Shown: piece after piece, positions 10,526 through 32,786 of the stretch | Numbering within the stretch: the stretch's first letter is position 1 | Layout: each line of letters opens with the position of its first letter | From: Bacteroidota bacterium | Lineage (GTDB): Bacteria; Bacteroidota; Bacteroidia; UKL13-3 | NCBI GenBank assembly: GCA_040387195.1 | Contig: JAZKEF010000011.1 | Coordinates: 102,393 to 166,392 of the forward strand | DNA: 64,000 nucleotides | Direction: 5' to 3' | Translations under genes and position numbers: made by a program | Notes under the pieces: model-generated | Told to the model about the DNA's origin: nothing | Seen by the model: the letters and a program-made list of their open reading frames with translations, nothing else | The model's database searches: none

Positions 10526-10552
10526 TTGAACTAAATTCTTTTTTATAAATGG

Positions 10553-12406: not shown

Positions 12407-12522
12407 CGATTCAAATATAGGCGTTTGATTGATAAACAGCTATGATAAAAATTTCTTAATAAATAACGACTGTCAGATATTGTGACAACATGAGTGAGCG
12501 GTCTTCTGCAATGTTGTTGCCC

Positions 12523-12564
12523 GCAGATTTCGCAGATTCCGCTGATCTTTTATGCGAAATCTGC
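12523..12564. promoter_or_regulatory. Perfect 12-bp inverted repeat upstream of the metal operon
   Basis: gcagatttcgca-N18-tgcgaaatctgc. No T-run after it, so it is probably not a terminator. Confidence 0.35.
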
Positions 12565-12587
12565 TGGAATAATTAGCTCGCATATTT

Positions 12588-14036: not shown

Positions 14037-15926
14037 ATGAAAAGAAGAGTTTATTTGCTGTTGTGTATTGCTATGTTTTCTTTAACTGCTTATGCAGGGA
14101 ATAGGGATGCGCAGGATACTGCAGCAGTAAATAAGCTTCTCCGACAATCTTCTTCTCTGCAACGCAGCAATGTAGATTCATGCTACCTTTTAGCTATACA
14201 AGCATTACAGCTATCTCAAAATGCTCAATATCAACAAGGTTTAGCCGGAGCCTATATACGCATGAGTGCAGTGATGATGATTAAAGGGAAGAGTGATTCA
14301 GCAATGAGTTATGCTCAAATGGCAATTGCTATAAGCGAGCACATAGAAGACCATCTTAGAACATCATATGCATATCTGTTAATGGGATACTTGTATCAGG
14401 ATAAAGGCATGCCGGATTCATCAATGGCAATGATTTATGAGTCGCAACGCTATGGTGAATTGGCAAAGGACTCCGGCAATCTTCTGAGGGTATTTGGTGT
14501 ATTGGGAAATTTTCATCTAGAGTATAAAGAGTATGATAAAGCATTGTTTTATTATCTAAAAACATATAAGCTTTCACTTAAGGTGAATAATATGTCCTCA
14601 GCTGCTGATGCCCTTATAGGAATTGGCAATGTGTATTATTTTAAAGGGAAGTTGCACACTGCACTACGGTATTATTTTAAGGTTGATTCGTTGAGCAGAC
14701 TTCTAAATGAAAAAACAGGGGTAGCTCAGAACTTAAATAATATAGCGTTGTGTTATGCCGATTTGAAACAATATGACAAGGCGCTGGACTATTACCTGAT
14801 GGCGTTGAAGGAATACCAGGCATTTGGTATGCGCAGTGAGGAGGCTAATTTATATTATAACCTTGCCTGTATGTATGAGGCGCTCCAACAGAGCAATGGT
14901 GTGGTTTTTTATGCGAACAAAGCTCTTATACTTGCTCAGGAGTTGGATGGCAGGGATAAAGTTGCTAAATGTTACCAATTATTGGCTAGAGCATACGGAC
15001 AAAAAGGAGATTACACCAAAGCATATCACTACCAGGAACAATATGCATTGCTGAATGATTCTTTGCTGAACACCGAAAAAGTACGCAGCATCAGTGAAAT
15101 GCAAACCAAGTATGAGACTGAACTCAAAAACCAGGAGATTGCTATTTTGCAGAGGGAGAATGATATCAGCAGGTTAAAAGCTTCTCGGAGTTTGGGAATG
15201 AATGTGGGGTTGGGGAGTGCGTTGCTCGGAATTGTGTTTGTTGCATTTGGTTTTTATACCCAAAGCAAGAAAAAAGAAAAGCTGAACACTGAGCTAACCT
15301 TTGAAAAGAAAAAGTCGGATGATTTGCTCCTGAACATTTTACCGGAAGAAGTAGCCAACGAACTCAAACAAAACGGAGAGGCCGTTGCCCGCCAGTACAA
15401 CAATGTAACGGTGTTGTTTACTGATTTTGTAAACTTTACCGGACTCAGCGAACAAATGAGTCCCACCGAACTGGTGCAGGAAATTCACCGGAACTTTACG
15501 GCTTTTGATGCCATCATTGAAAAGCATGGATTGGAAAAAATAAAGACTATCGGTGATGCATATTTAGCAGTGTGCGGATTGCCTAATGAAACCACAGACC
15601 ATGCACAACGTGTTGCCAGAGCTGCGTTGGATATCCGCGATTATATGGCTAATAACTCAGGTAAGTTTGAAGTGCGTATAGGTATTCATAGCGGTCCTGT
15701 GGTTGCCGGAATTGTAGGGGTTAAAAAATATGCTTACGACATTTGGGGTGATACGGTGAACACCGCAAGTCGCATGGAAAGCAGCAGTGAAGCCGGTAAA
15801 ATCAATATCAGTACATCAACTTATGAATTGATAAAAGCAGCATTCAATTGCACCTACCGCGGTAAAATAAACGCCAAACATAAAGGGGAAGTAGACATGT
15901 ATTTTATTGACCAATCGGTAACTTAA
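14037..15926 (+). CDS. Class III adenylate cyclase with periplasmic TPR sensor domain and one TM
   Basis: Signal peptide. TPR repeats, coiled coil and a TM helix. Cyclase domain FTDFVNFTG...KTIGDAYLAV...YDIWGDTVNTASRME...KGEVDMYF carries metal-binding Asp, the adenine-specifying Lys/Asp pair, and Asn, Arg and Lys catalytic residues. Confidence 0.85.
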   Translation: MKRRVYLLLCIAMFSLTAYAGNRDAQDTAAVNKLLRQSSSLQRSNVDSCYLLAIQALQLSQNAQYQQGLAGAYIRMSAVMMIKGKSDSAMSYAQMAIAISEHIEDHLRTSYAYLLMGYLYQDKGMPDSSMAMIYESQRYGELAKDSGNLLRVFGVLGNFHLEYKEYDKALFYYLKTYKLSLKVNNMSSAADALIGIGNVYYFKGKLHTALRYYFKVDSLSRLLNEKTGVAQNLNNIALCYADLKQYDKALDYYLMALKEYQAFGMRSEEANLYYNLACMYEALQQSNGVVFYANKALILAQELDGRDKVAKCYQLLARAYGQKGDYTKAYHYQEQYALLNDSLLNTEKVRSISEMQTKYETELKNQEIAILQRENDISRLKASRSLGMNVGLGSALLGIVFVAFGFYTQSKKKEKLNTELTFEKKKSDDLLLNILPEEVANELKQNGEAVARQYNNVTVLFTDFVNFTGLSEQMSPTELVQEIHRNFTAFDAIIEKHGLEKIKTIGDAYLAVCGLPNETTDHAQRVARAALDIRDYMANNSGKFEVRIGIHSGPVVAGIVGVKKYAYDIWGDTVNTASRMESSSEAGKINISTSTYELIKAAFNCTYRGKINAKHKGEVDMYFIDQSVT

Positions 15927-15945: not shown

Positions 15946-17937
15946 ATGAACAGCATATTTAAATCCACAATGACCATCCGAAAATACATACTTGTTGTTT
16001 TGTTGTGTAGCTTATGTTCGACCATAACACATGCTCAACGAGCAAAAGATACCTTAAGCGTTTCATTGACGATGGATAGTTTATCCTCCTCATTTAACCG
16101 CCTTTGGTGGAAGTATTCTCCGGTTGACGATTCGGCCGCAGTTGCCCCGGCATTTAATGACAGCAACTGGAAGTATATGCTTTCCGAAAGAATTGATTCG
16201 AACAACTTTAAAGGAATTGGTTGGTTCAGATTACACTTTACCATTGATTCAACTATGGTGCATAAACCCATTGCTTTCGGGATGCGGCAAAAAGGGGCAT
16301 CGGAAATCTATCTTGATGGCAAACTGGTAAAGCGCTACGGCAACATTAACGGAAAAGACAGCACGGAGCATTACGACCCGCAAAATGTACCGATTATTCT
16401 AATTATGGATTCGGTGGGTGAACATGTATTGGCAGTGAGATATGCCCGTTATGATTTTCCGCATGGGGAGTACGTAGGTTTTTCAATAGAGATGTCTTCG
16501 GCCGACAATACCATTGAACAAAAGCGGGTGAATGATGTGCTCATAACGGTATTTTTGATTGTGCTGTTTGTTGTATTCTTTACACTGAGCTTTTTACATT
16601 TATTGTTTTTCCTGTACTACAAACACAATGTATCCAATTTGTGGTTCAGTATCTTCATGTTTTGCATTGCCGGAATCTGGTTTGCCAACTTTTGGGCATT
16701 GTTTACCAGTGATCCCGATTTTAATGCGCGCTTAAAAGACGCGATGATGGTTTTTGCCTGCATAGCGTGTTTTTCTTTTTTGCTGTTCATTCATATCCTG
16801 TTTGCCAACCAAAAAAGATGGTGGATCATTATAGCGTTTTTGTTAAGCACCATTACCATGGTTGTGTATTTTTCAGATTCATTTGATGCAGGACCACTGA
16901 TGTTTGTGATGCTGGGTTATGTTGCTGTGTATAGTATTGTGTGTCTGTTAAGAGCCATTATCAAAAAGATAAAAGGTGCAGTGATTCTGGGAGTGGGGTT
17001 TGGCTTTTTCATGGTGTCCTTATTTTTTGTGGTGCTCCTGGCCTTTATTATGGAGGGGTTGGAATTTAATACAGGCAATAGCGTCCTCGGTGGAATATTG
17101 GTTGTCGTTCTATTGCTGGATATTGTATGTATTCCAATCACCATGTCGGTATATCAGGCGTGGATGTTTGCCAAATTAAATAAAGACCTTACCTCACAAC
17201 TGCAACAAGTAAAAGACCTTTCGGAAACCACCATCAAACAGGAGCAAGAGAAAAAACAGATTCTTGAAAACCAGAATGCACAATTGGAGTTGATGGTGGC
17301 CGACCGTACCGCACAACTTACACTCGAAAAACGCAAGAGTGATGAATTGCTCCTCAATATATTACCCGAAGGTGTTGCCGAAGAACTTAAAAATACCGGC
17401 AGTGCCGAGGCCAAACAATACAATAATGTAAGTGTACTGTTTAGCGATTTTGTGAATTTTACCGGCTTGAGTGAACGTATGACGCCAACCGAGCTGGTAA
17501 AGGAAATTCACCGTCATTTCACAGCATTTGATGCTATTATTGAAAAACACGGATTGGAAAAAATAAAAACGATCGGAGATGCATACATGGCAGTATGCGG
17601 TTTACCGGTTGAAACACCCGACCATGCCCAACGTGTGGTAAGGGCATCATTGGATATTTTGCACTACATGGAACAATCGGGAAGCAGGTTCAGTATTCGG
17701 ATGGGTGTGCATACCGGAGCTGTTGTTGCCGGAATTGTGGGTGTAAAAAAGTATGCGTATGATATTTGGGGTGATACGGTAAATACAGCAGCGCGTATGG
17801 AACAAAACAGTGAGTCTGGAAAAATCAATATCAGCGGTACTACTTATGAACTGGTGAAACGTGAATTTACCTGCACACACCGCGGAAAGATTCAGGCGAA
17901 GAATAAAGGGGAGATTGATATGTACTTTGTGAATTAA
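15946..17937 (+). CDS. Class III adenylate cyclase with a 7TMR-DISM sensor (DISMED2 extracellular domain plus 7 TM)
   Basis: N-terminal extracellular domain NWKYMLSERIDSNNFKGIGWFRLHFTIDS. Seven hydrophobic helices and a coiled coil. Cyclase domain as in 14037..15926. Confidence 0.8.
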   Translation: MNSIFKSTMTIRKYILVVLLCSLCSTITHAQRAKDTLSVSLTMDSLSSSFNRLWWKYSPVDDSAAVAPAFNDSNWKYMLSERIDSNNFKGIGWFRLHFTIDSTMVHKPIAFGMRQKGASEIYLDGKLVKRYGNINGKDSTEHYDPQNVPIILIMDSVGEHVLAVRYARYDFPHGEYVGFSIEMSSADNTIEQKRVNDVLITVFLIVLFVVFFTLSFLHLLFFLYYKHNVSNLWFSIFMFCIAGIWFANFWALFTSDPDFNARLKDAMMVFACIACFSFLLFIHILFANQKRWWIIIAFLLSTITMVVYFSDSFDAGPLMFVMLGYVAVYSIVCLLRAIIKKIKGAVILGVGFGFFMVSLFFVVLLAFIMEGLEFNTGNSVLGGILVVVLLLDIVCIPITMSVYQAWMFAKLNKDLTSQLQQVKDLSETTIKQEQEKKQILENQNAQLELMVADRTAQLTLEKRKSDELLLNILPEGVAEELKNTGSAEAKQYNNVSVLFSDFVNFTGLSERMTPTELVKEIHRHFTAFDAIIEKHGLEKIKTIGDAYMAVCGLPVETPDHAQRVVRASLDILHYMEQSGSRFSIRMGVHTGAVVAGIVGVKKYAYDIWGDTVNTAARMEQNSESGKINISGTTYELVKREFTCTHRGKIQAKNKGEIDMYFVN

Positions 17938-18039
17938 CATCAAAGTTTGACACACCGAGCAGGTTGTTGGGAAACACATTGTAATTTAAGTACCTTTAAA
18001 ATGTGTTCGGTAAAATATTGTTGAACAACGTATCTACTC

Positions 18040-20127
18040 ATGCGTAATTGGTTTTTATTTGGTCTGTATCTATCCATGACGGCATGGCTGTGTGTCGTAA
18101 ACGGATATGCGCAATCCTCTGCCAAGAATGTTAGACTCGATTCACTATTGAAAATAGATGTAAACGTCATTCCTGTTGATTCACTCAAAGCCGATCATTA
18201 TGATCGTATTGCAACAACTTACAGTTCCTCTTCTGATTACTTGCATGCATGCGAATATTGGCAAAAATCAATGGATATAGCCACATCCACAAATGATAAG
18301 CAACGGGCTGTTAAATATTTGGGAAGTCTGGGTCTCGAATACATTGCAATGGCTCACTACCCCAAGGCACTGGAGTGTTTTTTGAAGGCACTTGCATTTG
18401 CTGAACAAGCAAAAAACCGGAGTGCCATTACCAATTACCTCAACCACTTAGGCCGGGTTTACATGTTTTTGGGTGATTATCCCAAAGCGCTCGAATACTA
18501 TCAAAAAGCACTGGTCATCAGTGAAGCTGCAGGGTTAAAAAATCCGGTTGCAAAGCAGCTCCGTAATATTGGAAATACCTATAATAAAATGGGAGATTAT
18601 CCTAAAGCCATCGAATACCTGAAAAGGTCACAACTGCTTTTCGACAGCCTAGGTATCAAAGAAGGAGGAATGATTAGTTTGGGAATCATCGGTTCAGTGT
18701 ATCTTAATATAGCGGATTACGAGCGCTCGTTGGAATATTTACAAAAGGCACTGGTGATGAGTCGCCAGGCAAATAATAAACGCCAGGAAAGCATGAATCT
18801 GCTAAACATAGGCAAAGCTTACCGTGAAGCACCGGATCATATTCTGCTGAAAGCCGGAATACAGCCTGCTCAACGGAATGTAAGAGTATTAGAGTATTTA
18901 TACCTTGGCCAGCAAACAGCAAAAGAAATAAATGATGCAGGAACCGAAAAAATAGCATGGGAAGCCCTGAGTGATACCCATGAAAAGCAAGGTAATTATA
19001 TCAAAGCGTATCAGGCATACAAACAATACATTGTACTTCGTGATAGCATTGAAGGAAGTGAAACAAAAAATACCATTGCGATCAAAGAGATGCAGTTTGA
19101 TTTTGATAAACGGGAAACAAAACTATTGTTTGATCAGCAACTCACACACGAAAAACTGAGACAGCAGGAATTGCTCACACGCCAACAACAGCTTGATTTG
19201 GGCCTTAAACAACAACAATTAGTATTGAGTTTGCAAGATAAAAATCTGCAGCACCTGGTCTTTCTTAAAACACAAGCCGAGTTACAACAGGAGCGGATAG
19301 CAGGAGAGAACCAGCAGGCACTCTCGGCAAAAAAAGATGCAGAGCTTAAATTGTTAAGTAACGAAAAGGCCTTACAGGAAACAAAGCTTGAACTAACAAC
19401 CAACGAACTTACAGCAAAGGAAAATCAGCGAAATGGATTCATCATCGGTACGGTACTGTTGTTGTTTTTTGCAACTGCTGTTGTAATGGGATTAAAACGA
19501 ACTTCTGCAGAAAAGAAAAAGTCGGAAGCATTGTTGCTGAATATTTTACCAAGTGAAGTAGCCATGGAACTCAAACAAACGGGGGAAGCCATTGCCAAAC
19601 AATACAATCATGTAACGGTATTATTTACCGACTTTGTAAACTTCACGGGTATCAGCGAACAACTCTCCCCAACGGAATTGGTAGCAGAGGTTCATAAAAA
19701 CTTCACAGCCTTTGATGCCATTATCGAAAAACACGGATTGGAAAAAATAAAGACTATTGGCGATGCCTATCTGGCTGTATGTGGCTTACCGAATGAAACA
19801 GAAAATCATGCGCAACAGGTAGTGAGAGCGGCCTTGGATATTCAATTATTTATGAGTCAAAACGGAAATAAATTTCAGGTACGTATCGGCATCAATTCTG
19901 GAGCTGTTGTGGCCGGAATTGTGGGCGTTAAAAAATACGCATACGATATCTGGGGTGATACCGTAAACACGGCAAGCCGCATGGAAAGCTGCAGCGAAGC
20001 CGGTAAAATCAACATCAGTGGTGCTACTTATGAACTCATCAAACATGATTTTCGCTGTGAGCATCGAGGTAAAATAACCGCCAAAAACAAGGGAGCGGTT
20101 GATATGTATTTTGTGGAAGGGGTGTAG
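18040..20127 (+). CDS. Class III adenylate cyclase with TPR sensor, long coiled coil and one TM
   Basis: 695 aa. Same architecture as 14037..15926. Confidence 0.85.
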   Translation: MRNWFLFGLYLSMTAWLCVVNGYAQSSAKNVRLDSLLKIDVNVIPVDSLKADHYDRIATTYSSSSDYLHACEYWQKSMDIATSTNDKQRAVKYLGSLGLEYIAMAHYPKALECFLKALAFAEQAKNRSAITNYLNHLGRVYMFLGDYPKALEYYQKALVISEAAGLKNPVAKQLRNIGNTYNKMGDYPKAIEYLKRSQLLFDSLGIKEGGMISLGIIGSVYLNIADYERSLEYLQKALVMSRQANNKRQESMNLLNIGKAYREAPDHILLKAGIQPAQRNVRVLEYLYLGQQTAKEINDAGTEKIAWEALSDTHEKQGNYIKAYQAYKQYIVLRDSIEGSETKNTIAIKEMQFDFDKRETKLLFDQQLTHEKLRQQELLTRQQQLDLGLKQQQLVLSLQDKNLQHLVFLKTQAELQQERIAGENQQALSAKKDAELKLLSNEKALQETKLELTTNELTAKENQRNGFIIGTVLLLFFATAVVMGLKRTSAEKKKSEALLLNILPSEVAMELKQTGEAIAKQYNHVTVLFTDFVNFTGISEQLSPTELVAEVHKNFTAFDAIIEKHGLEKIKTIGDAYLAVCGLPNETENHAQQVVRAALDIQLFMSQNGNKFQVRIGINSGAVVAGIVGVKKYAYDIWGDTVNTASRMESCSEAGKINISGATYELIKHDFRCEHRGKITAKNKGAVDMYFVEGV

Positions 20128-20249
20128 TTGACGGTTCATAGTTCATAGTGGGAGGAAACAGTTTCTCTTCTTTGCGGTAGGCATCTGCTCATCCTCACCT
20201 ATTCCCCTTCCTCCCCCTAATTGGGTATTTTTCAACCAATACAGCATCC

Positions 20250-20257
20250 TACATTTG
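20250..20257 (+). promoter_or_regulatory. Candidate Bacteroidetes sigma-A -7 box TACATTTG (TAnnTTTG)
   Basis: Sits in the conserved CTACATTTGA motif upstream of the 20348 gene. The same motif occurs at 13277 and 29211. Confidence 0.35.
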
Positions 20258-20347
20258 ATTCGAAACAAATTGCACCCGACTAGATGTTCGATACATGTTA
20301 CTCGATAGCGGCATCATGCAATACTTGAAACTTTAAATCTACTCAAT

Positions 20348-21235
20348 ATGAAAACAACAGTACTTACTTTGATGATGGTTGCCTGTTTATGCTTCCATGC
20401 ACATGCCCAGATTCCCAACAACGGATTTGAAACCTGGACCAACAATGATCCCGATGGATGGGTAACCACCAATGGATTGATGCTGCTGGGCAATCCGCAG
20501 TCGGTGTTTAAATCAACGGATGTTCACAGCGGCAGTTTTGCGTGCGAAGTAAACACCGTAAACATTGCCACCAAACCTCCGGGAGTATATGTTCCTGATT
20601 TTACAGGATCTGTATTTACAGGTAAACAGGTGTTTGTTACTTCATACTTTGGTTTTCCGTATACCAACAAACCGGGGAAACTAAGCTTCTGGTATAAATA
20701 CAATGCACGCAATAATGATACGGCAAGTGTTCTTGCTTACACAACCAAATGGAATGCAACACTGCAAAAACGCGATACATTATCGATAGCGGTTAGCATG
20801 ATTAAAGATTCGGTAGGAGTGTATACTAAAGGAGAGGTGATGTTTTATGTAATGGACTCCTTGCAATCTCCCGATACTGCAGTGGTATTGTTTGCATCGA
20901 GCATGGTTACTGCAACACAGGCTGGAGCAAAATTGTTGCTGGATGATGTTGAGTTTATGGGAGGAAATGTTGGCTTAACGGAAGCGGGGGCACCTTCATT
21001 TAACATTTTCCCCAATCCGGTTAAAGATGGTTCTGTGCAGTTACAATTTGAAAAGCCAGAAGTATCGGTAATAATTAACGTGTTTGACATGCAGGGAAAA
21101 AATGTCCTGACACAATCAACAAATACAGCAACCGGTAAGATGGTGCTATCAACCTTACAATTTTTACCCGGATTATACATACTCTCTGTTCAAACAGAAC
21201 AAGGCACTGCTGTAAAACGATTGATTATTCAATAA
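20348..21235 (+). CDS. T9SS-secreted CBM-like protein
   Basis: Signal peptide. NGFETW start typical of CBM4/9-like beta-sandwich domains. C-terminal T9SS sorting domain PNPVKDGSVQLQFE...LPGLYILSVQTEQGTAVKRLIIQ. Confidence 0.65.
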   Translation: MKTTVLTLMMVACLCFHAHAQIPNNGFETWTNNDPDGWVTTNGLMLLGNPQSVFKSTDVHSGSFACEVNTVNIATKPPGVYVPDFTGSVFTGKQVFVTSYFGFPYTNKPGKLSFWYKYNARNNDTASVLAYTTKWNATLQKRDTLSIAVSMIKDSVGVYTKGEVMFYVMDSLQSPDTAVVLFASSMVTATQAGAKLLLDDVEFMGGNVGLTEAGAPSFNIFPNPVKDGSVQLQFEKPEVSVIINVFDMQGKNVLTQSTNTATGKMVLSTLQFLPGLYILSVQTEQGTAVKRLIIQ

Positions 21236-21253
21236 CCGGTCAGCATTACTCTG

Positions 21254-24214
21254 ATGATAACCGGTATTAGGAAAGCCATTTATGTACTAGGATGCATGGG
21301 AATATTGATGTGTATCAATACCCGGAAAAGTGCTGCTCAGGAATTCCGTTCTCAATCAAGAAAATATGTGGAAGAGGCCGATACATTGGATGGTGCAGAG
21401 GGAAATATAGAGGCCAGGTTCATTCGCGGTAATGTTAAATCGGCAACAACCAATGAAGTGTTGCCGGTCGCTATTATCAGACAAGCAGGAACAACCTATG
21501 CCGTAAATTCCAACCTTGATGGCGGATTTACCATGAAGCTGGATGTGCGCAAACCTGTTCAACTCATCTGTTATTATTTGGGTTTTTCGCCTGATACCAT
21601 TACTGTAACGGAACACACAACGTTCATCAACTTTCGGTTGCAGGAGACTTTTGCTTCCATTAAAGATGTAGTGGTTTCAGCATCGCGTAAAAATGAAAAG
21701 AGGTTTGAAAGCCCCGTTACAATTGAATCTTTGACTGCCCGCGACCTGCAGGTAAATCCAACATTGAATATGTACGAACGCATGACCAACATGGCCACTG
21801 TTGATGCAATTACTACCAGCGCCAATTTTAAAACACTCAACACGCGCGGATTTAATTCAAGTTATAATCAACGGTTTATTCAACGGTTGGATAATATGGA
21901 TTTATCCATGCCCGGTTTTAACCTTTCGCTGGGAGCTCTGAATGGTCCCGTTGATTTGGATGTGGAACGCATGGAGTTGATTCCGGGAGCCAATTCAGCA
22001 TTATATGGTCCAAATGCTATTAGCGGATTAATGAATACCACTTCCAAAAATCCGTTTCAATACCAGGGACTAAGTGTTGAATTCAAGTCCGGCATGAACC
22101 ATATTGGTGATCCTTCTATCAGTCCGCAACCGATGATGGATTTTAACCTCCGGTATGCAAAAGCTCTTAGCAGAAAAGTTGCCGGCAAGATAACCTTTGG
22201 ATATATGCAGGTTTCGGATTGGCGTGCTACCGACTACCGAGATGTATCAAACTATAATTATTCGAATAACCTTACAACATACGGATATGAAAAGGGACCT
22301 GGAAACCCAGGTTATAACGGACTAAACATAGGTGGAGATGAAGTGTCGGCAGTGTTTGATACCAGCATCAAAGCACCTATTACCAATCAACCGTTTCTTG
22401 AAAAGGGAGCATTGCGTGTTTCCCGTACAGGTTATCGGGAGGACCAGTTGTTTACGTATAAACCATATATGCTTAAAGGGGATGTTGGATTTTATTACCG
22501 GCCCAAAAAAGGAATGGAGTTATCCTGGACTTCCCGTTTCGGATTGGGCAGTAGTAATTTTCAAACAGACAACCGCACACAAATTACAGGTTATTTTTTG
22601 CAACAGCATAAAGTAGAGTTAAGCGGACGTAACTATGTGTTCAGGTCGTATGTAAGTGCCGAAGATATTGGAGAAGCCATCGATATCAGTCTTACTTCTG
22701 TTAACTTAAACCGAGCAGCCAAACCTGATGAAAACTGGTTTATGCAATACCTGTTTGTGTATTCCGGGCAATATAATAACCTGGCCATGGCGGCCGGACT
22801 CGATACCATTCAGGGCGGTAATGATGCGTTGGCGAGGAAATTTGCGGATGGTAACAACGAACATTTGTATCCGTATATCAACGCATTTGATACGGCAAGT
22901 GCAAAACTAATTTTAGGCAATTCCAGGTTCGAACCCGGCACAAAAGGTTTTGATTCGGTATTAAACATTATCAAAGGAAAAGCCTTTAAAGATGATGGAG
23001 GACGGATAAAAAGTACCTCAAAAACGTGGTATACGGAGTTTGTATACAATTTCCCCATTCGCAATAAATCTTGGTCGTTACAGTCAGGTATCAATTACCG
23101 CCTGTATGCTCCCAATACTTCCGGATCTGTATTTCCCGATACGAGCAGCCTTATTTATTTTAAAGAGGTGGGAGGGTTTGTGCAAGGAGGAAAAACATTT
23201 TTCAATAACAGGCTCAAACTTCAAGGGTCAACACGAGTGGATGCATTTCAGCAATTCGATCCGCGACTAAGTCCAAGGCTTTCTGTGGTATTGATGCTGG
23301 GTAAAAAGCAACAACACAGTGTAAGGATGTCGGCACAAATAGGCTTTCGAATGCCTCCGCTTATTGATATGTACTCATACATGAATGTAAAAGGTGCACT
23401 TACGTTTGGTGGTTTTTTACAGGATGCGTATAACCTCAATCTGGTGAGGCGTACACCTGATGGTGGGGAGTTTGTAAATATGTACACCCAAAGCTCGGTA
23501 AACGAATATTTGTATACCGGTGATTCAAACAGGCTGGTAAAGCCTGTGATAAAAGATATTGCTCCCGAAGAGTTGCGTACCATTGAGTTTGGCTGGAGAA
23601 GTTTTTTATTCAACAAACTTGAGTCTGATTTCAATGTGTATTTTAATTCCTTTCAAAACCTTATCAGTGCACAACAATATGTTGGGCCGATTAACCGCAC
23701 CGATACTATTAATCCAGCGTATGTTAAAAATCAGCAGCAAACCCAAGTTTACCGTAGAGCAGCAAATTCCAATTTCCCGGTAAGCTCATATGGAATAGCC
23801 ATCACTACCAATTATTATGTAAGCCATAAATGGTCATATTATGCTAATTACAATTTCAACGAACTCATTACATCTGTAGATTTTATCAGCAAAAATTTTG
23901 AAAAGGGATTCAATACGCCCAGGCATAAAGTAAACGTAGGAGTGAAGGGTACACGGTTTTACAGAAACTTTGGTATGGCCGCAAACCTGCGTTGGGTGGA
24001 CGCATTCTACTTTGCAGAGTACGACAGAATAGGTACTCTGGATGCATACTATTCAATTGACCTTGCCATCAATTACACCTTTATTAAACAAAAAGTGATG
24101 TTGAAACTAGGAGGGACAAATATTACCAATCAGGCTTATATACAAGCTTTGGGGTCGCCCACTGTTGGCGCATTGTACTATGTTTCTATCCTGTATGACG
24201 GATTGATCAAATAG
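21254..24214 (+). CDS. TonB-dependent receptor (CarboxypepD_reg, plug, barrel)
   Basis: 986 aa. N-terminal regulatory-like domain. Plug with RKNEKRFESPVTIESLTARDLQ. Large beta-barrel. No adjacent SusD-like gene. Confidence 0.8.
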   Translation: MITGIRKAIYVLGCMGILMCINTRKSAAQEFRSQSRKYVEEADTLDGAEGNIEARFIRGNVKSATTNEVLPVAIIRQAGTTYAVNSNLDGGFTMKLDVRKPVQLICYYLGFSPDTITVTEHTTFINFRLQETFASIKDVVVSASRKNEKRFESPVTIESLTARDLQVNPTLNMYERMTNMATVDAITTSANFKTLNTRGFNSSYNQRFIQRLDNMDLSMPGFNLSLGALNGPVDLDVERMELIPGANSALYGPNAISGLMNTTSKNPFQYQGLSVEFKSGMNHIGDPSISPQPMMDFNLRYAKALSRKVAGKITFGYMQVSDWRATDYRDVSNYNYSNNLTTYGYEKGPGNPGYNGLNIGGDEVSAVFDTSIKAPITNQPFLEKGALRVSRTGYREDQLFTYKPYMLKGDVGFYYRPKKGMELSWTSRFGLGSSNFQTDNRTQITGYFLQQHKVELSGRNYVFRSYVSAEDIGEAIDISLTSVNLNRAAKPDENWFMQYLFVYSGQYNNLAMAAGLDTIQGGNDALARKFADGNNEHLYPYINAFDTASAKLILGNSRFEPGTKGFDSVLNIIKGKAFKDDGGRIKSTSKTWYTEFVYNFPIRNKSWSLQSGINYRLYAPNTSGSVFPDTSSLIYFKEVGGFVQGGKTFFNNRLKLQGSTRVDAFQQFDPRLSPRLSVVLMLGKKQQHSVRMSAQIGFRMPPLIDMYSYMNVKGALTFGGFLQDAYNLNLVRRTPDGGEFVNMYTQSSVNEYLYTGDSNRLVKPVIKDIAPEELRTIEFGWRSFLFNKLESDFNVYFNSFQNLISAQQYVGPINRTDTINPAYVKNQQQTQVYRRAANSNFPVSSYGIAITTNYYVSHKWSYYANYNFNELITSVDFISKNFEKGFNTPRHKVNVGVKGTRFYRNFGMAANLRWVDAFYFAEYDRIGTLDAYYSIDLAINYTFIKQKVMLKLGGTNITNQAYIQALGSPTVGALYYVSILYDGLIK

Positions 24215-24241
24215 TCCATTTCTGATTTTAAATGTTTATTA

Positions 24242-27139
24242 ATGACGGCCTCAATGAGAAAATTCACACTCGCCATATTCTTTCATACTGTTGTATGCAT
24301 CTCTGTTGTAATAGCCCAACATGATTTGGTAAATCAGTATTCATCCAAACAATACAATGCCCATACACTCATGTGGGATATGGTTGGGGATGAACACGGA
24401 TATCTTTGGTTTGCCAATAATGATGGTGTAGTGAGATTTGACGGAAACAACTGGATTACGTTTCCAACACCCAATCCAGTCAGAAGCTTGGTAGTTACAA
24501 AAAGGGGAGAAATATTTGTGGCTTGCCTTGAAGATTTTGGGGTACTCACATTTACAAGTTCAGGGGGGACACAATTTATCAGTTTTAAAAAGCAACTTGA
24601 TGTATCACAAGTAGCCGGAGGTGGAGGAGAAAAGGTTTTTATGATGGATGATAATGTGTATTTTTCATCAGGTCATTCCATTTTTACAGTAAGTAAACAG
24701 CATGGTGAATATAAGATTACAGTAGTTGATAAGGAAAAAAATCTGGGTTGTGGGGTGTTGCAGCATAAACTGTTTTCAAACCATACACGACAAGGGTTTG
24801 GATGGATTCAGGGTGGACGTTTTACTCCTCTTAGAAATGGATATGAGCTGGCCGGTAAACAAATTGTTCAAACGGTTTCATTCGCGAAACAAGACCTGAT
24901 ATTTACCAATTATGATGGCGTGTATCGTCTCAAGGATAATATCCTGAGCAAGGTGTTACAAAATGCATTAACCGGCTTTACAATGAATGGGGTAGCAGAT
25001 GCGGTTGTAATTGGGCATCAAAAACTCGCTGTGGCAACCTACCATGATGGTGTTAAAATATTCGACAGCAACATGCAGGAAATAACCATTCCCGAATTGC
25101 CTTCCCGTGAAATCTATCAACTCGGTGCCGACCATGAACAAAACCTTTGGATATCGCACCTGAAAGGAATAACGCAGGTATTAACAGGTTTGCCGGCCAC
25201 AACATTTAAATACCCTGCTGTGTCGGGGTATATCAATAAGATTGAGAAGCTTGGCGGTAATATTTACCTGAGTAGTACAAATGGATTGTTCGCAACAACT
25301 TCGGGCAACCCCACACATATTACACCGATTGCCGGAATGAATACGGAGTGTTGGGATATTCAACCCTTTCATCATACACTCTATGTGGCCACCACAAACG
25401 GTTTGTATACTGTTGATGGTTTGAATACCAAATTGGTTGTACCCAATGAAACATTTACTCAGCTTCAGGTAAGTAATCTTTCAGGAAAGCTCTACGCGTT
25501 CGGATTGAATAATTGTTTCACTGTTGATGAATACCAAACAATTATACCTCTTAAAAACTTTACAACGACATCCAACTCTGTTTTTGAAAACAAGGATGGA
25601 AGTATATGGGTGGGGACAAATCACAATGGCCTGATGCATATTACAACCAACGGGAAGGGACAACTGGAGATTCCAATGGAGTTAACCACCGGAGAAGTGC
25701 GCATTCGTATCATTGATGGATCGCCCCTTTTTCAAAGCAAGGAAGCGGTATTCAGGTTTGAGGGAAGCACTTTCAGAAAAGATGAGGAGTTGTCGAAGTT
25801 ATGGATGGGAAATCGAAACAGTGAGTTGACGCAACAAAATAACTGGTTGTTTACAGATAAAGAATGGAAGCTGACGGTAGCCGGTAAACCTGTAACAGCA
25901 CATATTGCTTATGGTTTAAATGGAAAACCAACAACTGTGTTTCATGAAAAGGACAAAGATTGGTTTGCGACAGAGGATAATATGTATTGGATTAATGCAG
26001 GGTTGAACAAACCCGACAGGTTGATTGCCAATGTGAGCAGGGTTGAATACGGTAAAGAAGGAGTAGCTTTCAGCGGGTTGTTTGTAACCCAAAACGATGA
26101 GGTCTCCATTGTGCAGGATATTATTCCAGAGATCCAACACAATGAACAAATAATTACCATATGGTTTGGGTTAAACTCTTTTTACAATCCGGCAAAAAAT
26201 CAGTACCGGTATACCATAACAGGTATCAATGAGGAGTGGAGTGAATGGAGTGATGAGTCCAAACTTACCTTAAGCGGACTACCGGCCGGAAGCTATACAC
26301 TAACCGTGCAAGCCCGCGATGCTTTTGGTGATGAATCGGAAACAGGAAGTTATACCTTTTACATCAAGCCTGCTTGGTATCTTAGCGGTATTGCTTTCAT
26401 GGTATACATTCTGGGATTGTTTTTGGTTATGTATGGCGTGGTGCTACTCTACAACAAACGGTTGGTTTTTAAAAATAAGGAGCTCGAACAACGGGTACAG
26501 GAACGCACCGTTGAGCTCAAGAATGAAAAACAAAAGTCGGATGCCTTGCTGTTGAATATTTTACCGGAAGGTGTGGCCGAAGAATTGAAGAATAAGGGAT
26601 ATGCAGAGGCCAAACAATACAACCATGTAACGGTGTTGTTTACCGATATGGTGAACTTTACCGGCATCAGCGAGCAGATGACGCCCCGGGAACTCGTTGC
26701 TGAAATCCACCAAAACTTCACAGCGTTCGATACCATCATCGAAAAACACGGACTAGAAAAAATAAAAACAATCGGAGATGCCTATTTAGCTGTAAGTGGT
26801 TTGCCAATCGAACACCACAATCATGCGCAACGTGTAGCAGCTGCAGCTTTAGATATTCAACAATACATGGCTCAAAATAACGGGAAGTTTCAAATCCGGA
26901 TAGGACTTCACTCAGGACCTGTAGTGGCCGGAATTGTGGGGGTAAAAAAATACGCTTTCGATATTTGGGGTGATACCGTAAATATGGCAGCCCGTATGGA
27001 GCAAAACAGTGAAGCAGGAAAAATCAATATCAGTGCAGCTACTTATGAGTTAATTAAGGATGATTTTACATGTGAATACCGTGGTAAAATTAACGCCAAG
27101 AACAAAGGAGAAGTAGATATGTATTTTGTGGTGAGCTGA
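24242..27139 (+). CDS. Class III adenylate cyclase fused to an HTCS-type periplasmic sensor (Reg_prop beta-propeller repeats plus Y_Y_Y domain) and one TM
   Basis: 965 aa. N-terminal repeats fit the two-component-regulator propeller pattern. Y_Y_Y-like YRYTITGINEEWSEWSDESKLTLSGLPAGSYTLTVQARDAFG lies just before the TM. Cyclase domain as in the paralogs. Confidence 0.75.
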   Translation: MTASMRKFTLAIFFHTVVCISVVIAQHDLVNQYSSKQYNAHTLMWDMVGDEHGYLWFANNDGVVRFDGNNWITFPTPNPVRSLVVTKRGEIFVACLEDFGVLTFTSSGGTQFISFKKQLDVSQVAGGGGEKVFMMDDNVYFSSGHSIFTVSKQHGEYKITVVDKEKNLGCGVLQHKLFSNHTRQGFGWIQGGRFTPLRNGYELAGKQIVQTVSFAKQDLIFTNYDGVYRLKDNILSKVLQNALTGFTMNGVADAVVIGHQKLAVATYHDGVKIFDSNMQEITIPELPSREIYQLGADHEQNLWISHLKGITQVLTGLPATTFKYPAVSGYINKIEKLGGNIYLSSTNGLFATTSGNPTHITPIAGMNTECWDIQPFHHTLYVATTNGLYTVDGLNTKLVVPNETFTQLQVSNLSGKLYAFGLNNCFTVDEYQTIIPLKNFTTTSNSVFENKDGSIWVGTNHNGLMHITTNGKGQLEIPMELTTGEVRIRIIDGSPLFQSKEAVFRFEGSTFRKDEELSKLWMGNRNSELTQQNNWLFTDKEWKLTVAGKPVTAHIAYGLNGKPTTVFHEKDKDWFATEDNMYWINAGLNKPDRLIANVSRVEYGKEGVAFSGLFVTQNDEVSIVQDIIPEIQHNEQIITIWFGLNSFYNPAKNQYRYTITGINEEWSEWSDESKLTLSGLPAGSYTLTVQARDAFGDESETGSYTFYIKPAWYLSGIAFMVYILGLFLVMYGVVLLYNKRLVFKNKELEQRVQERTVELKNEKQKSDALLLNILPEGVAEELKNKGYAEAKQYNHVTVLFTDMVNFTGISEQMTPRELVAEIHQNFTAFDTIIEKHGLEKIKTIGDAYLAVSGLPIEHHNHAQRVAAAALDIQQYMAQNNGKFQIRIGLHSGPVVAGIVGVKKYAFDIWGDTVNMAARMEQNSEAGKINISAATYELIKDDFTCEYRGKINAKNKGEVDMYFVVS

Positions 27140-27176: not shown

Positions 27177-29090
27177 ATGAATAAACTTACTGTGCTTTTG
27201 CTTGCAATATTTTTGGTGCTGACCAGCTTTGCTCAGGAACAGCAGCTCATTGACTCGCTGGAAACAGAAGTGAGAAATATCAATGCGGCTAAGATCGATC
27301 CTGGCAAATTGACGTTAAAAGTTAATGACACCACGGAGGCAAATACCCTGTTTCTCTTGGCTAGAAGTTATATTGATATTAATCCGCAGAGGGCATTCGA
27401 TCTTTCGGATCAGTGCCGGATCCTTTCAGAACGCATTGGATACAAAAAGGGAATGGGCAATGCATACAATTGTTTTGGAAGCCTTTTGGTAAACAAGGGG
27501 GATTTCATGTCGGCCATGGAATATTATAAAGCAGCATTCAAAATAAGGGAGGAAATAGGCGACAAGGAAGGCTTGGCAGCTCTATATAATAACTTTGGAA
27601 TGATTTATTATAACAGTGGCAATTACCCTAAGGCGTTGGCAAGCTACCTCACTGCACTGGAAATGAATACTGCTTCAGGAAATAAACAATGGCAGGCCTA
27701 TAACCTCATGAATATCGGACATATTTATTCCAGTTCAAAAAACTATTCCGAAGCCATGAAATACTATGTTGCCAGTTTAAGTACTAGCAAGGAAATAGGA
27801 GATGTAGGGGGAATAGCACTCTCATACAATCATATCGGAGATGTGTATAAAAACCAAAATAATAACGCACAGGCGTTAAAGTATTTTGTAAGATGTTTAA
27901 AAATGAAAGAGGAGTTTGGGTATAAAGACCTTGAAGCATTATCCTATAATAATATTGGAGAGGTTTACAAAGATCAACAGAAGTATCCGGAGGCATTAAG
28001 GAATTTTTTCGCAGCATTAAAAATAAGTGAGGAAGCAGGGTATAAAGATGGTGTAGGCATGTCATACAATTTTATTGGAATAGTATATACCCTGCAAAAA
28101 AAATACAAAGAGGCTAAAGTGTATTTGCAAAAGGGACTATTGCTTTCAACGGAGGTAGGAAATATTGAAAATATTAAAGATAGTTATGATGCATTAGCTA
28201 AGCTTGCTGCCGATGAAGGGGATTTAGGTGCTTCGTTGGGCTATTACAAGAACTATATATTGTATAGGGATAGCATGATGAATCATGAGAATACCCGAAA
28301 AATAACCCAGCAGCAAATGCAATTTGATTTTGATGCAAAAGAGTCCGTCAGAAAATCAGCACAGGAAAAGAAAGATACATTGGATAGAGTTGTGCGAAAT
28401 GTATTGATTGGAGGATTGTTGACGATGCTGCTGTTCTCGGTTATATTTTTTATACAGCGAAATTCCATAAGCAAAGGCAAAAGGGAAAGTGATAGGTTAT
28501 TGTTGAATATTCTTCCGTCAGAGATTGCCGAAGAACTCAAAAAAAAGGGAGAAACGGTTGCCCGGCAATACAATCATGTAACGGTTTTGTTTACGGATTT
28601 TGTCAATTTCACAGGCATCAGTGAACAAATGACACCAAACGAACTGGTTGCCGAAATACACCGAAACTTTACGGCTATTGATACCATCATCGAAAAACAC
28701 GGACTGGAGAAAATTAAGACCATTGGCGATGCCTATTTGGCGGTAAGTGGTCTACCCAATGAAACTCCTGATCATGCGAGTCGCGTTGCACATGCTGCGT
28801 TAGACATTCGTGAATATATGAGCATACATAAAGGGAAATTTGAAATACGTATAGGTATCAATAGTGGTCCTGTAGTAGCCGGTATTGTTGGTGTAAAAAA
28901 GTACGCTTACGATATATGGGGCGATACCGTAAACACCGCAGCACGCATGGAGCAAAACAGTGAGGCAGGAAAAATTAATATCAGTGCCTCAACGTATGAG
29001 TTGATCAAGAATAGTTTTACTTGTGAGTACAGAGGCAAGATAGAGGCAAAGAACAAAGGGGATATGGATATGTATTTTTTGATGAGCTGA
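27177..29090 (+). CDS. Class III adenylate cyclase with TPR sensor and one TM
   Basis: 637 aa. Same architecture as 14037..15926. Confidence 0.85.
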   Translation: MNKLTVLLLAIFLVLTSFAQEQQLIDSLETEVRNINAAKIDPGKLTLKVNDTTEANTLFLLARSYIDINPQRAFDLSDQCRILSERIGYKKGMGNAYNCFGSLLVNKGDFMSAMEYYKAAFKIREEIGDKEGLAALYNNFGMIYYNSGNYPKALASYLTALEMNTASGNKQWQAYNLMNIGHIYSSSKNYSEAMKYYVASLSTSKEIGDVGGIALSYNHIGDVYKNQNNNAQALKYFVRCLKMKEEFGYKDLEALSYNNIGEVYKDQQKYPEALRNFFAALKISEEAGYKDGVGMSYNFIGIVYTLQKKYKEAKVYLQKGLLLSTEVGNIENIKDSYDALAKLAADEGDLGASLGYYKNYILYRDSMMNHENTRKITQQQMQFDFDAKESVRKSAQEKKDTLDRVVRNVLIGGLLTMLLFSVIFFIQRNSISKGKRESDRLLLNILPSEIAEELKKKGETVARQYNHVTVLFTDFVNFTGISEQMTPNELVAEIHRNFTAIDTIIEKHGLEKIKTIGDAYLAVSGLPNETPDHASRVAHAALDIREYMSIHKGKFEIRIGINSGPVVAGIVGVKKYAYDIWGDTVNTAARMEQNSEAGKINISASTYELIKNSFTCEYRGKIEAKNKGDMDMYFLMS

Positions 29091-29158
29091 TGGAGGGACG
29101 ACTCTCGGGAGTGTCCGCGGTCATCAGTCTATGGTCGGTAGTCTGAAGTCTGAAGTGT

Positions 29159-29200
29159 GGGAGGGGCCCCCCTCCCCATATTGTGGTATTTTTTCAGTAC
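29159..29200 (+). terminator. Rho-independent terminator after the last cyclase
   Basis: gggagggg-cc-cccctccc GC hairpin followed by atattgtggtatttttt. Confidence 0.6.
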
Positions 29201-29232
29201 ATCCTGATTCTACATTTGAATAGTGCAGTTGT

Positions 29233-30045
29233 ATGCATATATTTATCAAAAAAAACATGAAGAGCATTGTTGTATTAATTGATTTTACAGAGGGTTCGGT
29301 AGTTGCCTTAAAACAGGCAATCAGTTTGAGCAAACGTACCCGAGCAGAGGTAACTGCGTTGCACATTGTATCATCTCCCGAAAAGGTAAAAGCTGCCGAA
29401 GAAGAACTTCATCAATTGGTAACAAGGCACGATGGTGATGTAACGATCCATAAAATGGTGTCAGTTGGAGCACTTATTCCGACCTCCGAAGAGGCGCTTC
29501 GAAAAATTAATCCGGATATAGTGCTTGTATGTACACATGGAGTGAAAGGAATGTACCAGTATTTATTCGGAGCCCAGATCCTTAAAATGGTTCAGGCCAT
29601 TCCGTACCCGTGCCTGGTGGTTCATGAAAACAAAGGAGTGGATCTTGCACGTACCGAATCCATTTTGTTTCCTATTGGCCCGCATCCTGAGTTCATGGTT
29701 AAAATCCAACAAACCGCTGCACTGGCAAAGGCATTGGGATCAAATATTGTGATCTACCGTATCGACAGGCCCGGGAATGATTTTCAGAAATTTTTGGTTA
29801 AGAATGAAGAAGAAGCCAAAAAGTATTTTTCAGAACAAGATATACCATTCACAACAGTACTCGAAGATATCGAAGTTGTTTCGGTGGGGTATTCCCGTCA
29901 AACCATTAATTACGCAGTAAAACACAATATGGGGATATTAAGCCTGATGGCCAATATGTCCAACAACGATCAGCTATTCGGGTATGGCGATAAAGAAAAT
30001 TTCCTGGTAAACGAAGAAGGAATATCGGTGCTTACGTGCAATTGA
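29233..30045 (+). CDS. Universal stress protein (tandem UspA domains)
   Basis: Two Usp-like halves (VVLIDFTEGS..., VCTHGVKGM...). The alternative start MKSIVVL at 29257 is also plausible. Confidence 0.75.
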   Translation: MHIFIKKNMKSIVVLIDFTEGSVVALKQAISLSKRTRAEVTALHIVSSPEKVKAAEEELHQLVTRHDGDVTIHKMVSVGALIPTSEEALRKINPDIVLVCTHGVKGMYQYLFGAQILKMVQAIPYPCLVVHENKGVDLARTESILFPIGPHPEFMVKIQQTAALAKALGSNIVIYRIDRPGNDFQKFLVKNEEEAKKYFSEQDIPFTTVLEDIEVVSVGYSRQTINYAVKHNMGILSLMANMSNNDQLFGYGDKENFLVNEEGISVLTCN

Positions 30046-30497: not shown

Positions 30498-31355
30498 CTA
30501 AAACGATAAATTAATCATCGAAGCCAATCGCTCTGTTTTATAAAGGTTTTGCAACGGGTGAATACACATTACCGGAATTTCTTCCTTGTTATTAATCACC
30601 TTTTGCTCAACCGGACCCAGCACAAACTCAATAAGTTCTTTTTCCTTAGTGGTAAGAATGATAATCAGGTTTGCATCAACTTCTTTAGCATATTGTATGA
30701 AATCTTTGTCGAAATCAACCGATGCTTTGGCTTGTTGTTCCTCCAAAAATGGAATGTCTTGTTCTTTTAAATAACGTTTGATGAACTGAGCATTAAGGTC
30801 AATTTTGCTTTGGTGAATATCATCAATACCTTTTTGTTTGTATAGGTAAACAGTTGCATCAAACATCTTAGCCATATTTAATGTTTGCATGGTTTTTTGT
30901 TTGGTTTCAACAGAAAAGTCAACAGGTAATACAATCTTTTTATATCCTTCCAGTTGTGGCATTTTACTTTTTACCACAATAACCGGTACATTGCTCGATT
31001 CAATTACTTTAATGGCCCAGGCTCCTGTAAGCTTTTGCATGCCAACAACACCATGCGTACCCATTACAACCAGCGAGGCTTTCAGTTCATCGGCTACTTC
31101 ACCAATTGTGGTAAAAATGCTGCCTTCCTTAAACATTTTATTAACCTTAATACCATATTTTCCGGCAAAATAATCGCATTGGCTCTGAAACTGGTTTACC
31201 AAACTTTCTTCAGCCTTGTTACTTTTAGTAAGAATGTGAAGTAAGGTAACTTCATTTTTGTTTTGTTTGGCCAACATACAGGCGTGGTTGATGGCACACT
31301 CGGCAACATTAGTAAAATCGGTGGGAACGAGTACGATGTTATTATTATTTTCCAT
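30498..31355 (-). CDS. Universal stress protein (tandem UspA domains)
   Basis: Start refined to MENNNNIVLVPTDFTNVAE. VMGTHGVVGMQKL motifs. Confidence 0.7.
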   Translation of the reverse strand: MENNNNIVLVPTDFTNVAECAINHACMLAKQNKNEVTLLHILTKSNKAEESLVNQFQSQCDYFAGKYGIKVNKMFKEGSIFTTIGEVADELKASLVVMGTHGVVGMQKLTGAWAIKVIESSNVPVIVVKSKMPQLEGYKKIVLPVDFSVETKQKTMQTLNMAKMFDATVYLYKQKGIDDIHQSKIDLNAQFIKRYLKEQDIPFLEEQQAKASVDFDKDFIQYAKEVDANLIIILTTKEKELIEFVLGPVEQKVINNKEEIPVMCIHPLQNLYKTERLASMINLSF

Positions 31356-31368
31356 GCCCGCTAATATA

Positions 31369-31953
31369 TTAATAGGATTGGACAATTGCTTCAATTTTTT
31401 TAAGATGGGCCTGTTTGGTTGCTTGCCGCAACTCAATGGCTGAGCGTGTAAAATAATGATGTGAGTTGAGGAACTTGAGTTGCAGGTTATTCCATTCCTG
31501 CTCATTGCTTAAAATACCATATACGGAAAGCTCCTGATACAGGTGGTTTCCAATTTCCCAAAAATCTTCCCGGCCCAGGTAATCCAGATCAGCATCGCAA
31601 ATGATTTGCTCCAGAACGTTTTGGGGATTCTGAGGGATTTTGGTCGACATAATCATCCCGCATATCTGCTCAATCTCAACTTTGTTATAGCCGAACTGGG
31701 GAAGCTCCTCACGCACAATGGCACATCCACGTTCCTCATGATCCTTTGTTTGGTATATAAAACCCGAGTCGTGAAAAACAACAGCGGTTAACAGCAAATC
31801 CCTTTCATAGGCAGATATGCCTTCAGCATCGGCTAGTCTCAATGCGGCTTCCTCTACATCCAGAACGTGGTGGAGGCTATGGTAGGATAAGTTGCTGTGG
31901 AGCTCCTTCTCCAATCGTTTAATGATATAGGCCTTGGCTTTTGATAATTCCAT
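31369..31953 (-). CDS. HD domain phosphohydrolase
   Basis: HSLHHVLDVEEAALRLA...AVVFHDSGF (H..HD..D). Start probably MELSKAK. Confidence 0.65.
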   Translation of the reverse strand: MELSKAKAYIIKRLEKELHSNLSYHSLHHVLDVEEAALRLADAEGISAYERDLLLTAVVFHDSGFIYQTKDHEERGCAIVREELPQFGYNKVEIEQICGMIMSTKIPQNPQNVLEQIICDADLDYLGREDFWEIGNHLYQELSVYGILSNEQEWNNLQLKFLNSHHYFTRSAIELRQATKQAHLKKIEAIVQSY

Positions 31954-32736: not shown

Positions 32737-32786
32737 TAGTAAACCAACAACAAGCACGATACCTTTGAATAGTAATCAACCCATCT

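Follow-up and report, generated by a model that had tools for sequence, protein, structure and literature searches.

In Bacteroidota, the propeller-type sensors of hybrid two-component systems (HTCSs) are known as gene-by-gene switches of polysaccharide utilization loci (PULs); what, then, does such a sensor do when it is joined to an adenylate cyclase? The question is raised by a 64,000-nt stretch of DNA from a Bacteroidota bacterium of the UKL13-3 lineage (GenBank assembly GCA_040387195.1, contig JAZKEF010000011.1, positions 102,393 to 166,392 of the forward strand; hereafter, the window), in which 3 genes follow each other on the + strand, encoding a type IX secretion system (T9SS) cargo protein (20348–21235, 295 aa), a TonB-dependent receptor (21254–24214, 986 aa) and a receptor-type adenylate cyclase (24242–27139, 965 aa). 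The initial annotation, made from the sequence alone, had placed the 3 open reading frames (ORFs) at these positions, on the same strand and with short gaps, and all are present, with 18 nt between the cargo and receptor genes and 27 nt between the receptor and sensor genes. All 3 proteins carry a signal peptide followed by Gln, consistent with the preference of Bacteroidota for Gln after the signal peptidase I cleavage site. We hold with moderate confidence that the trio is a conserved envelope-spanning module, in which receptor-dependent uptake feeds a periplasmic sensor that controls the synthesis of cyclic AMP (cAMP).

The periplasmic part of the cyclase protein had been proposed to share the sensor architecture of HTCSs, and its predicted fold bears this out. 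The AlphaFold2 (AF2) model, built with 17 homologues as input and reaching a predicted local distance difference test (pLDDT) score of 80.2, contains 14 four-stranded blades according to DSSP, which form 2 tandem, periplasmic, seven-bladed beta-propellers (aa 40–325 and 326–590; 24359–26011, + strand), followed by an Ig-like domain and, at the C-terminus, by a cyclase fold. The best Foldseek matches of the periplasmic part in the PDB are the sensors BT4663 (4a2m/4a2l), BT3049 (3v9f) and BT4673 (3ott/3va6), with E values of ~1e-30 over ~770 columns, target-normalized TM-scores of 0.64–0.69 and sequence identities of 12–14%. Superposition of the model on BT4663, suggested beforehand as a check, was thus obtained; the other comparator suggested, BT1754, has a sensor of the periplasmic-binding-protein type rather than a propeller. 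Profile searches of the N-terminal region for Reg_prop and Y_Y_Y domains, also suggested at that stage, gave a divided result: the membrane-proximal Ig-like domain (aa 591–712; 26012–26377, +) is recognized as Y_Y_Y (PF07495, aa 647–708, E 3e-11) and has sequence matches to 3v9f and 4a2l, whereas the match to Reg_prop is weak (E 3e-9 overall, each single repeat being below significance). The hydrophobic segments of the protein, which begins with its signal peptide, span aa 6–30 and 710–739. Hydropathy and the model place a single transmembrane (TM) helix at aa 713–739, leading into a cyclase-transducer/HNOBA-type linker at aa 740–788 (together 26378–26605, +), with a weak match to the C-terminal part of HNOBA at aa 740–782. 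The model has an unbroken helix from aa 716 to 770, and the helical linker is among the best-conserved parts of the protein (majority fraction 0.75). In NCBI, the start of the protein is set 4 codons later (P0001, 961 aa); a 100% identical protein from a Bacteroidota metagenome-assembled genome (MAG) is annotated there just as “adenylate/guanylate cyclase domain-containing protein,” and a relative in JGI is labeled [quoted passage not shown]

The catalytic domain (aa 789–965; 26606–27136, +) matches Guanylate_cyc (PF00211) at aa 789–964 with an E value of 2e-54 and 184.6 bits against a cut-off of 21.9, and the C-terminus of the model aligns on bacterial class III cyclases in Foldseek. Because its best sequence matches in the PDB are the mammalian cyclases AC8, AC5 and AC9 as well as Rv1625c, the domain was placed in class IIIa. 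As read from the alignment to the C1 and C2 domains of AC8 and from motif positions, a single chain provides the metal-binding residues D802 and D846, the adenine-specificity residues K842 and D907 and the transition-state residues N914 and R918, all invariant in 14 of 14 orthologues. Since all 6 are present in 1 chain and invariant, the protein is predicted to be an active homodimeric adenylate cyclase and not a guanylate cyclase. The claim that a cyclase replaces the HK-REC-AraC output also holds, the HNOBA-like linker being the sole other cytoplasmic domain. Accordingly, lacking kinase, receiver and AraC domains and carrying only an HTCS-type sensor, the protein is not an HTCS. A class IIIa cyclase has reportedly been brought under the control of a grafted membrane receptor (PMC4821796).

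The gene directly 5′ of the sensor encodes, as had been stated, a TonB-dependent receptor, in which Pfam detects CarbopepD_reg_2 (aa 57–141) and Plug (aa 151–258; 39.7 bits, cut-off 23.9). The signal peptide is followed by a conserved mature N-terminus, an N-terminal extension domain, a TonB-box-like KDVVVSAS read from the sequence at aa 137–144, the plug and, presumably, a large barrel. The barrel model PF00593 matches the subfamily members P0156–P0158 but not the window receptor. NCBIfam models of siderophore/B12 receptors match in their plug region only, and the SusC/RagA model TIGR04056 does not match even at E ≤10; in the PDB, sequence matches are limited to the plug of CirA and an N-terminal extension domain on its own; no STN/secretin-type signaling domain was detected in the receptor by Pfam. 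The receptor belongs to a tight subfamily of ~39 clusters with at least 45% identity, separated by a gap from relatives that are at most 38% identical. Its mature N-terminus (aa 29–56; window 21338–21421) reads QEFRSQSR...D(T/S)....EG.I..R.I.G, with the general form Q-E/D-F/Y-R-S/T-x-S-R/K..., and is kept in 21 of the 22 homologues from the subfamily (P0157, which lacks it, is N-terminally truncated) and is absent from receptors with 30–38% identity. This peptide could be a periplasmic docking element.

The first gene of the trio encodes a protein with a predicted signal peptide cleavage before Q21, a PCMD domain (PF13201, aa 31–162; 34.5 bits, cut-off 28) and a type A C-terminal sorting domain (Por_Secre_tail/TIGR04183, aa 220–295, E 1e-16). 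With both an N-terminal signal peptide and a type A sorting domain, it has the hallmarks of type A T9SS cargo. Its AF2 model (pLDDT 90.3) consists of a PCMD/carbohydrate-binding module (CBM)-like beta-jelly-roll at ~aa 25–205, related to known CBMs, and a sorting-domain sandwich; the nearest structural neighbors are overwhelmingly CBMs and the PCMD protein BT_2081. “CBM-like T9SS cargo,” as the initial annotation called it, is thus a fair label, with carbohydrate binding read from the fold. We propose that the protein may serve as a surface or secreted ligand-capture protein.

To define how constant the trio is, modules were gathered from homologues of the sensor, homologues of the receptor, a scan of GTDB species genomes and a scan of JGI metagenomes, which yielded 17 distinct modules with this receptor subfamily. 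Loss of co-conservation in related genomes had been set beforehand as grounds for refutation; instead, a propeller/Y_Y_Y sensor lies directly 3′ of the receptor, on the same strand and after gaps of 6–64 nt, in 16 of the 17 modules, and a homologue of the T9SS protein lies directly 5′ of it in 15, being absent from the first copy in locus L003 and cut off by a contig end in another. The flanks vary, with an acyltransferase and OmpA-PorP in L008, a LytTR two-component system and NADH dehydrogenase in L011 and a Fic gene in L006; in L008, the trio stands alone among unrelated genes. By contrast, neither partner gene was found at 70 control loci with remote propeller sensors, in taxa that include Flavobacterium, Mariniphaga and Chitinophagaceae (for the most part ≤27% identical in the best segment, or with partial matches limited to the Y_Y_Y region), no sensor accompanies receptors of 28–39% identity at 77 further loci, and one homologue each of the small protein (30% identical) and the receptor (35% identical), looked up singly, were both unlinked. 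Since the distant homologues are unlinked, the association is specific to a lineage of 3 co-inherited genes. Two broader associations were considered and rejected: a general linkage of the wider receptor or small-protein family to sensors, the distant homologues being unlinked, and a receptor shared by the remote propeller sensors of Flavobacterium, Mariniphaga and Chitinophagaceae, none being present in the 70 loci. Across loci, identity falls in the order receptor (48–89%), cyclase domain, small protein and sensor region (30–65%). The feature is real, strongly conserved and plausibly functional. All carriers found are MAGs labeled Bacteroidia, Bacteroidota or “uncultured Chitinophaga,” mostly from freshwater, with several isolate names pointing to lakes, groundwater and an algal culture collection. 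One contig (L003/L014, JAUXUD010000065.1) holds 2 receptor-sensor-cyclase copies, at 6939–12922 and 16593–22922 and 3.6 kb apart; the first has no 5′ T9SS gene, and a 139-aa ORF consisting of a sorting domain only follows its sensor.

The outputs of the 16 receptor-linked sensors are cyclases in 14 cases and HisKA/HATPase in 2, the latter being L007/L012 (1965–9635) and L096 (4643–11606). The L007 receptor is orthologous (48% identity over 644 aa) and is followed by a histidine-kinase sensor; further 3′ are a TPR-kinase, a stand-alone receiver and a receiver-cyclase, the catalytic domain of which is 79% identical to that of the window. This locus resembles the fused sensor-cyclase split into separate proteins, and its MAG also has the fused version (L019). 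Because a closely similar receiver-cyclase is encoded there, cAMP is still a likely endpoint in L007 and may be reached through a phosphorelay, which supports sensor-to-cyclase coupling as the conserved logic. An exhaustive HMMER search of the sensor region against 1.84 billion representatives clustered at 50% identity recovered 13 representatives with at least 31% identity, 11 of which carry a cyclase; the next tier, at 25–29% identity, consists of histidine kinases of ~1,100 aa and some SpoIIE (PP2C) phosphatases, not HK-REC-AraC hybrids. Other propeller-cyclase combinations include P0018, with an HD domain, and the HK-REC-cyclase proteins P0023/P0028.

Upstream of 20348, the 220-nt spacer holds a conserved intergenic block (20205–20275, +) with no differences among the window, L001 and L002, the remaining spacer having diverged. 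Within it, a near-palindrome, CCCCCTAATTGGG, is followed by a T-run (20213–20232), and CCCCCTAATTGGGTATTTTT is followed 18 nt on by TACATTTG (20250–20257), a −7-type box that fits the Bacteroidota consensus TAnnTTTG. This consensus shows no enrichment across the window (60 matches versus 73 expected) and acquires meaning just by its position inside the conserved block, which is probably the promoter region of the trio. The 20-mer at 20213–20232 is repeated at 32003–31984 (−), in the spacer between the divergent HD and HisKA_3 genes (2 matches versus 0.02 expected). The CCCC-N5-GGG(G) motif also occurs 5′ of the trio in L001, L002, L008 and L010, L001 having copies at 5930–5941 and 15725–15736, and a gapped CCCC-N5-GGGG version is found at ~29175–29220 (+), before the Usp gene at 29233; each copy is near a TACATTTG box, and the near-palindrome may act as an operator or form a small hairpin. 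As an intrinsic terminator, a role that we considered and rejected, CCCCCTAATTGGG with its T-run has little strength in the window (−4 kcal/mol, z ~0) and more in L010 and 3′ of 29090, where a GC-rich hairpin with a T-run follows the fifth cyclase gene of the array described below (~29158–29195, −18.5 kcal/mol). Between 13000 and 30500, a terminator scan found none on the + strand between the trio genes, and a sigma-70 scan found fewer promoter-like sites than in shuffled sequence, both scans being uninformative for Bacteroidota; an Rfam scan of 12500–33500 gave no match at E ≤1 and hence no known riboswitch or leader. We infer that a single transcription unit starting near 20260 would cover the trio and perhaps the TPR-cyclase gene that follows it.

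A point absent from the initial annotation is that the trio is enclosed in a run of 5 class III cyclase genes, all on the + strand. Upstream, Pfam identifies a cyclase with a tetratricopeptide repeat (TPR) sensor (14037–15926), one with a 7TMR-DISM sensor (15946–17937) and a second TPR-sensor cyclase (18040–20127); downstream, 37 nt 3′ of the sensor-cyclase gene, is a 637-aa TPR-sensor paralogue (27177–29090). The catalytic domains of the 5 are 72–82% identical, that of the downstream paralogue being 82% identical to the domain of the trio, and the array is 1 cyclase module joined to differing sensors. The other sensor types, TPR and 7TMR-DISM, never have a receptor of their own. The downstream TPR-cyclase possibly shares the trio transcript; its counterpart is missing at that position in most related loci, and it is outside the conserved module. 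The array opens with a 233-aa ORF (13333–14034, +), which has a TACATTTG box upstream at 13277 and no Pfam or NCBIfam match; a 27% identical homologue lies directly 5′ of a TPR-cyclase in L006. On the 3′ side of the array are 2 Usp genes (29233–30045, +, and 30498–31505, −), a gene for an HD-domain protein of ~193 aa (31369–31950, −; PF01966, E 1e-6) and a HisKA_3/GerE two-component pair (32041–33425, +). Genes of the Usp, HD and HisKA_3/GerE types are found again close to the module in L001, L003, L005, L010 and L011, though not in all loci; that the HD protein is a cyclic-nucleotide phosphodiesterase is speculative.

The description of the trio as a minimal PUL, or as PUL-like, proved to be an analogy only. 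In addition to lacking the SusC/RagA match, the window has no Pfam match to the SusD family in any scanned ORF of at least 150 aa, no glycoside hydrolase, polysaccharide lyase or carbohydrate esterase domain by Pfam and no gene for sugar metabolism or catabolism; nor is SusD present among the neighbors of the trio at 10 related loci. The nearest relatives of the sensor are plain histidine kinases and PP2C phosphatases rather than HTCSs of PULs. Thus, with no SusC, SusD or carbohydrate-active enzymes (CAZymes), the module is not a PUL, although it resembles the sensing arm of one. Like the Bacteroides HTCSs BT4663, BT3049 and BT4673, the protein has 2 seven-bladed propellers and Y_Y_Y before a single TM helix, and its gene adjoins that of a TonB-dependent importer with a CarboxypepD_reg-like N-terminal domain; unlike them, it ends in a class IIIa cyclase with no HisKA, HATPase, REC or AraC domain, is only 12–14% identical to them and has a partner receptor that is not SusC/RagA, in a setting that has neither SusD nor CAZymes. 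Such re-use has its closest described precedent in BguR (bioRxiv 10.64898/2026.01.10.698779), a propeller-Y_Y_Y-TM sensor with a non-HTCS output, which makes this type of sensor a portable module; the GerE DNA-binding output of BguR acts directly on a SusCD PUL, whereas here the output would be a diffusible second messenger and there is no PUL. Sensors of the same Reg_prop/Y_Y_Y architecture with shuffled cytoplasmic ends are also known on GGDEF, SpoIIE/PP2C and histidine kinase outputs, and the cyclase-output clade differs from these in being small and tied to a dedicated receptor and T9SS protein. On the cyclase side, class IIIa enzymes of the Rv1625c/Cya type share ~40% identity in the catalytic domain, the same 6 residues, a helical transducer and the expected homodimer, but Rv1625c is anchored by 6 TM helices and lacks a large extracytoplasmic domain, in contrast to the 1 TM helix and ~690-aa periplasmic sensor found here.

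Domain anatomy, fold match, the catalytic residue set and strict receptor-sensor co-conservation are direct observations; the direction of the information flow, the nature of the ligand, whether the ligand switches the cyclase on or off and the reader of cAMP are what we infer. In the proposed mechanism, the 295-aa protein, exported by type IX secretion, would bind a ligand, for which a glycan is the likeliest candidate, at the cell surface or beyond it, and the dedicated receptor would carry this ligand, whole or in part, into the periplasm. There, the tandem-propeller/Y_Y_Y domain would bind the imported compound in the way Bacteroides HTCS sensors bind imported oligosaccharides, and the single TM helix and the helical linker would relay a change in the sensor dimer to the homodimeric class IIIa cyclase, which would make cAMP from ATP. 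The dimer rearrangement might resemble that of BT4663, a ligand-binding HTCS sensor with a scissor-like movement in signaling (PMC8534201). It is the CBM-like fold of the small protein that suggests a glycan ligand, and the ligand class is not needed by the model.

The sensor might, alternatively, read the receptor itself rather than its cargo. In FecA-FecR, too, a TonB-dependent receptor with an extra N-terminal segment is genetically coupled to an inner-membrane signaling protein with a periplasmic domain, and a comparable occupancy signal, relayed by contact of the sensor with the N-terminal peptide or the extension domain and ending in a cyclase, would fit a subfamily-specific receptor N-terminus (aa 29–56) that is missing from distant receptors, the adjacency of receptor and sensor in 16 of 17 modules even after a change of output domain and a receptor much more conserved than the sensor. 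We nevertheless regard this as unlikely, because the receptor has no STN/secretin-type domain of known transducer receptors and direct binding of small oligosaccharides is seen in sensor homologues of solved structure (4a2m; PMC8534201); the trio further departs from FecA-FecR in its cAMP output and in that no ECF (extracytoplasmic function) sigma or anti-sigma gene lies beside it. A non-glycan ligand with the same wiring, such as a peptide or part of a protein, a chelated metal, a vitamin or a metabolite from algae or cyanobacteria, captured by a hemophore-like or BtuG-like small protein, overlaps the uptake-fed module that we favor. The structural neighbors of the small protein, overwhelmingly CBMs and BT_2081, and the exclusively glycan-binding character of the characterized propeller/Y_Y_Y sensors that we found (BT4663 and BguR) make this doubtful in our view, even though the receptor is not SusC/RagA-like and has profile matches only to siderophore/B12 plug regions, the window has no CAZymes, jelly-roll folds serve as adhesin and MAM domains too and Bacteroides capture proteins pair with non-SusC receptors, as in BtuG-BtuB (PMC10404256).

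It is also conceivable, though very improbable, that the receptor and T9SS protein are targets or passengers of a cAMP signaling island and provide no input to the sensor, being neighbors by regulatory convenience. The trio does lie within the 5-cyclase array, beside the recurrent Usp, HD and HisKA_3/GerE genes, and the shared upstream motif hints at common regulation; yet the other cyclases and the Usp and HD genes vary between loci where the receptor-sensor pair is constant, the L008 trio stands alone between unrelated flanks, and the TPR and 7TMR-DISM sensors of the array never come with a receptor. Several observations weigh against the uptake-fed sensor-cyclase module itself. No CAZyme, SusD or sugar catabolism gene is nearby, and the window has no cNMP-binding gene or cAMP receptor protein; Foldseek matches of the small protein also include MAM and gingipain adhesin domains, the jelly-roll being a generic fold; the argument for co-transcription is drawn from short gaps and the conserved upstream block; and 1 module (L095) has the T9SS protein and the receptor with no sensor. 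Finally, the sensor region is the fastest-evolving part of the module, which would be unexpected with one fixed ligand.

Other parts of the window hold genes of separate interest. At 8327–11905 (−), a second outer-membrane-type protein with CarbopepD_reg (732 aa, no plug match), adjoining an HMA-MauE fusion and a small AraC-type regulator, appears unrelated to the trio. Two large T9SS cargo genes, 1 of them with SprB repeats, are located within 40848–46413 (−) and show that the organism is equipped for type IX secretion and gliding. Two 290-aa ORFs on opposite strands overlap nearly fully (53136–54008, −, and 53164–54036, +); the former has no Pfam match, and likely at most 1 of the 2 is a real gene.

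No description of a propeller/Y_Y_Y-cyclase fusion or a receptor-cyclase operon was found in a literature search outside of which most subscription journals lay, and a search on PCMD likewise gave no description. To our knowledge, cAMP signaling has barely been studied in the phylum Bacteroidota. Here, a conserved operon-like unit combines the sensor fold familiar from HTCSs, still linked to a TonB-dependent importer, with a class III adenylate cyclase. The natural variants, namely the fused cyclase, the histidine kinase and the locus combining a histidine kinase with a REC-cyclase, offer comparisons for how a scissor-type sensor might drive a dimeric cyclase, and the module is a possible chassis for ligand-controlled cAMP production. 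As all carriers found are uncultured MAGs, this biology is otherwise out of reach. A more far-reaching proposal, which we advance only tentatively and consider improbable as it stands, is that the module represents a new Bacteroidota route in which a T9SS binding protein, a receptor and a sensor reading either the cargo or the N-terminal peptide of the receptor couple nutrient capture at the outer membrane to cAMP, as a cell-wide signal in place of locus-specific transcription. If true, then together with the 4 differently sensed paralogous cyclases, it would make the locus a cAMP-based center for the integration of nutrient and environmental information. If the wiring proposed here is correct, some environmental Bacteroidota would turn import into a diffusible cAMP signal.

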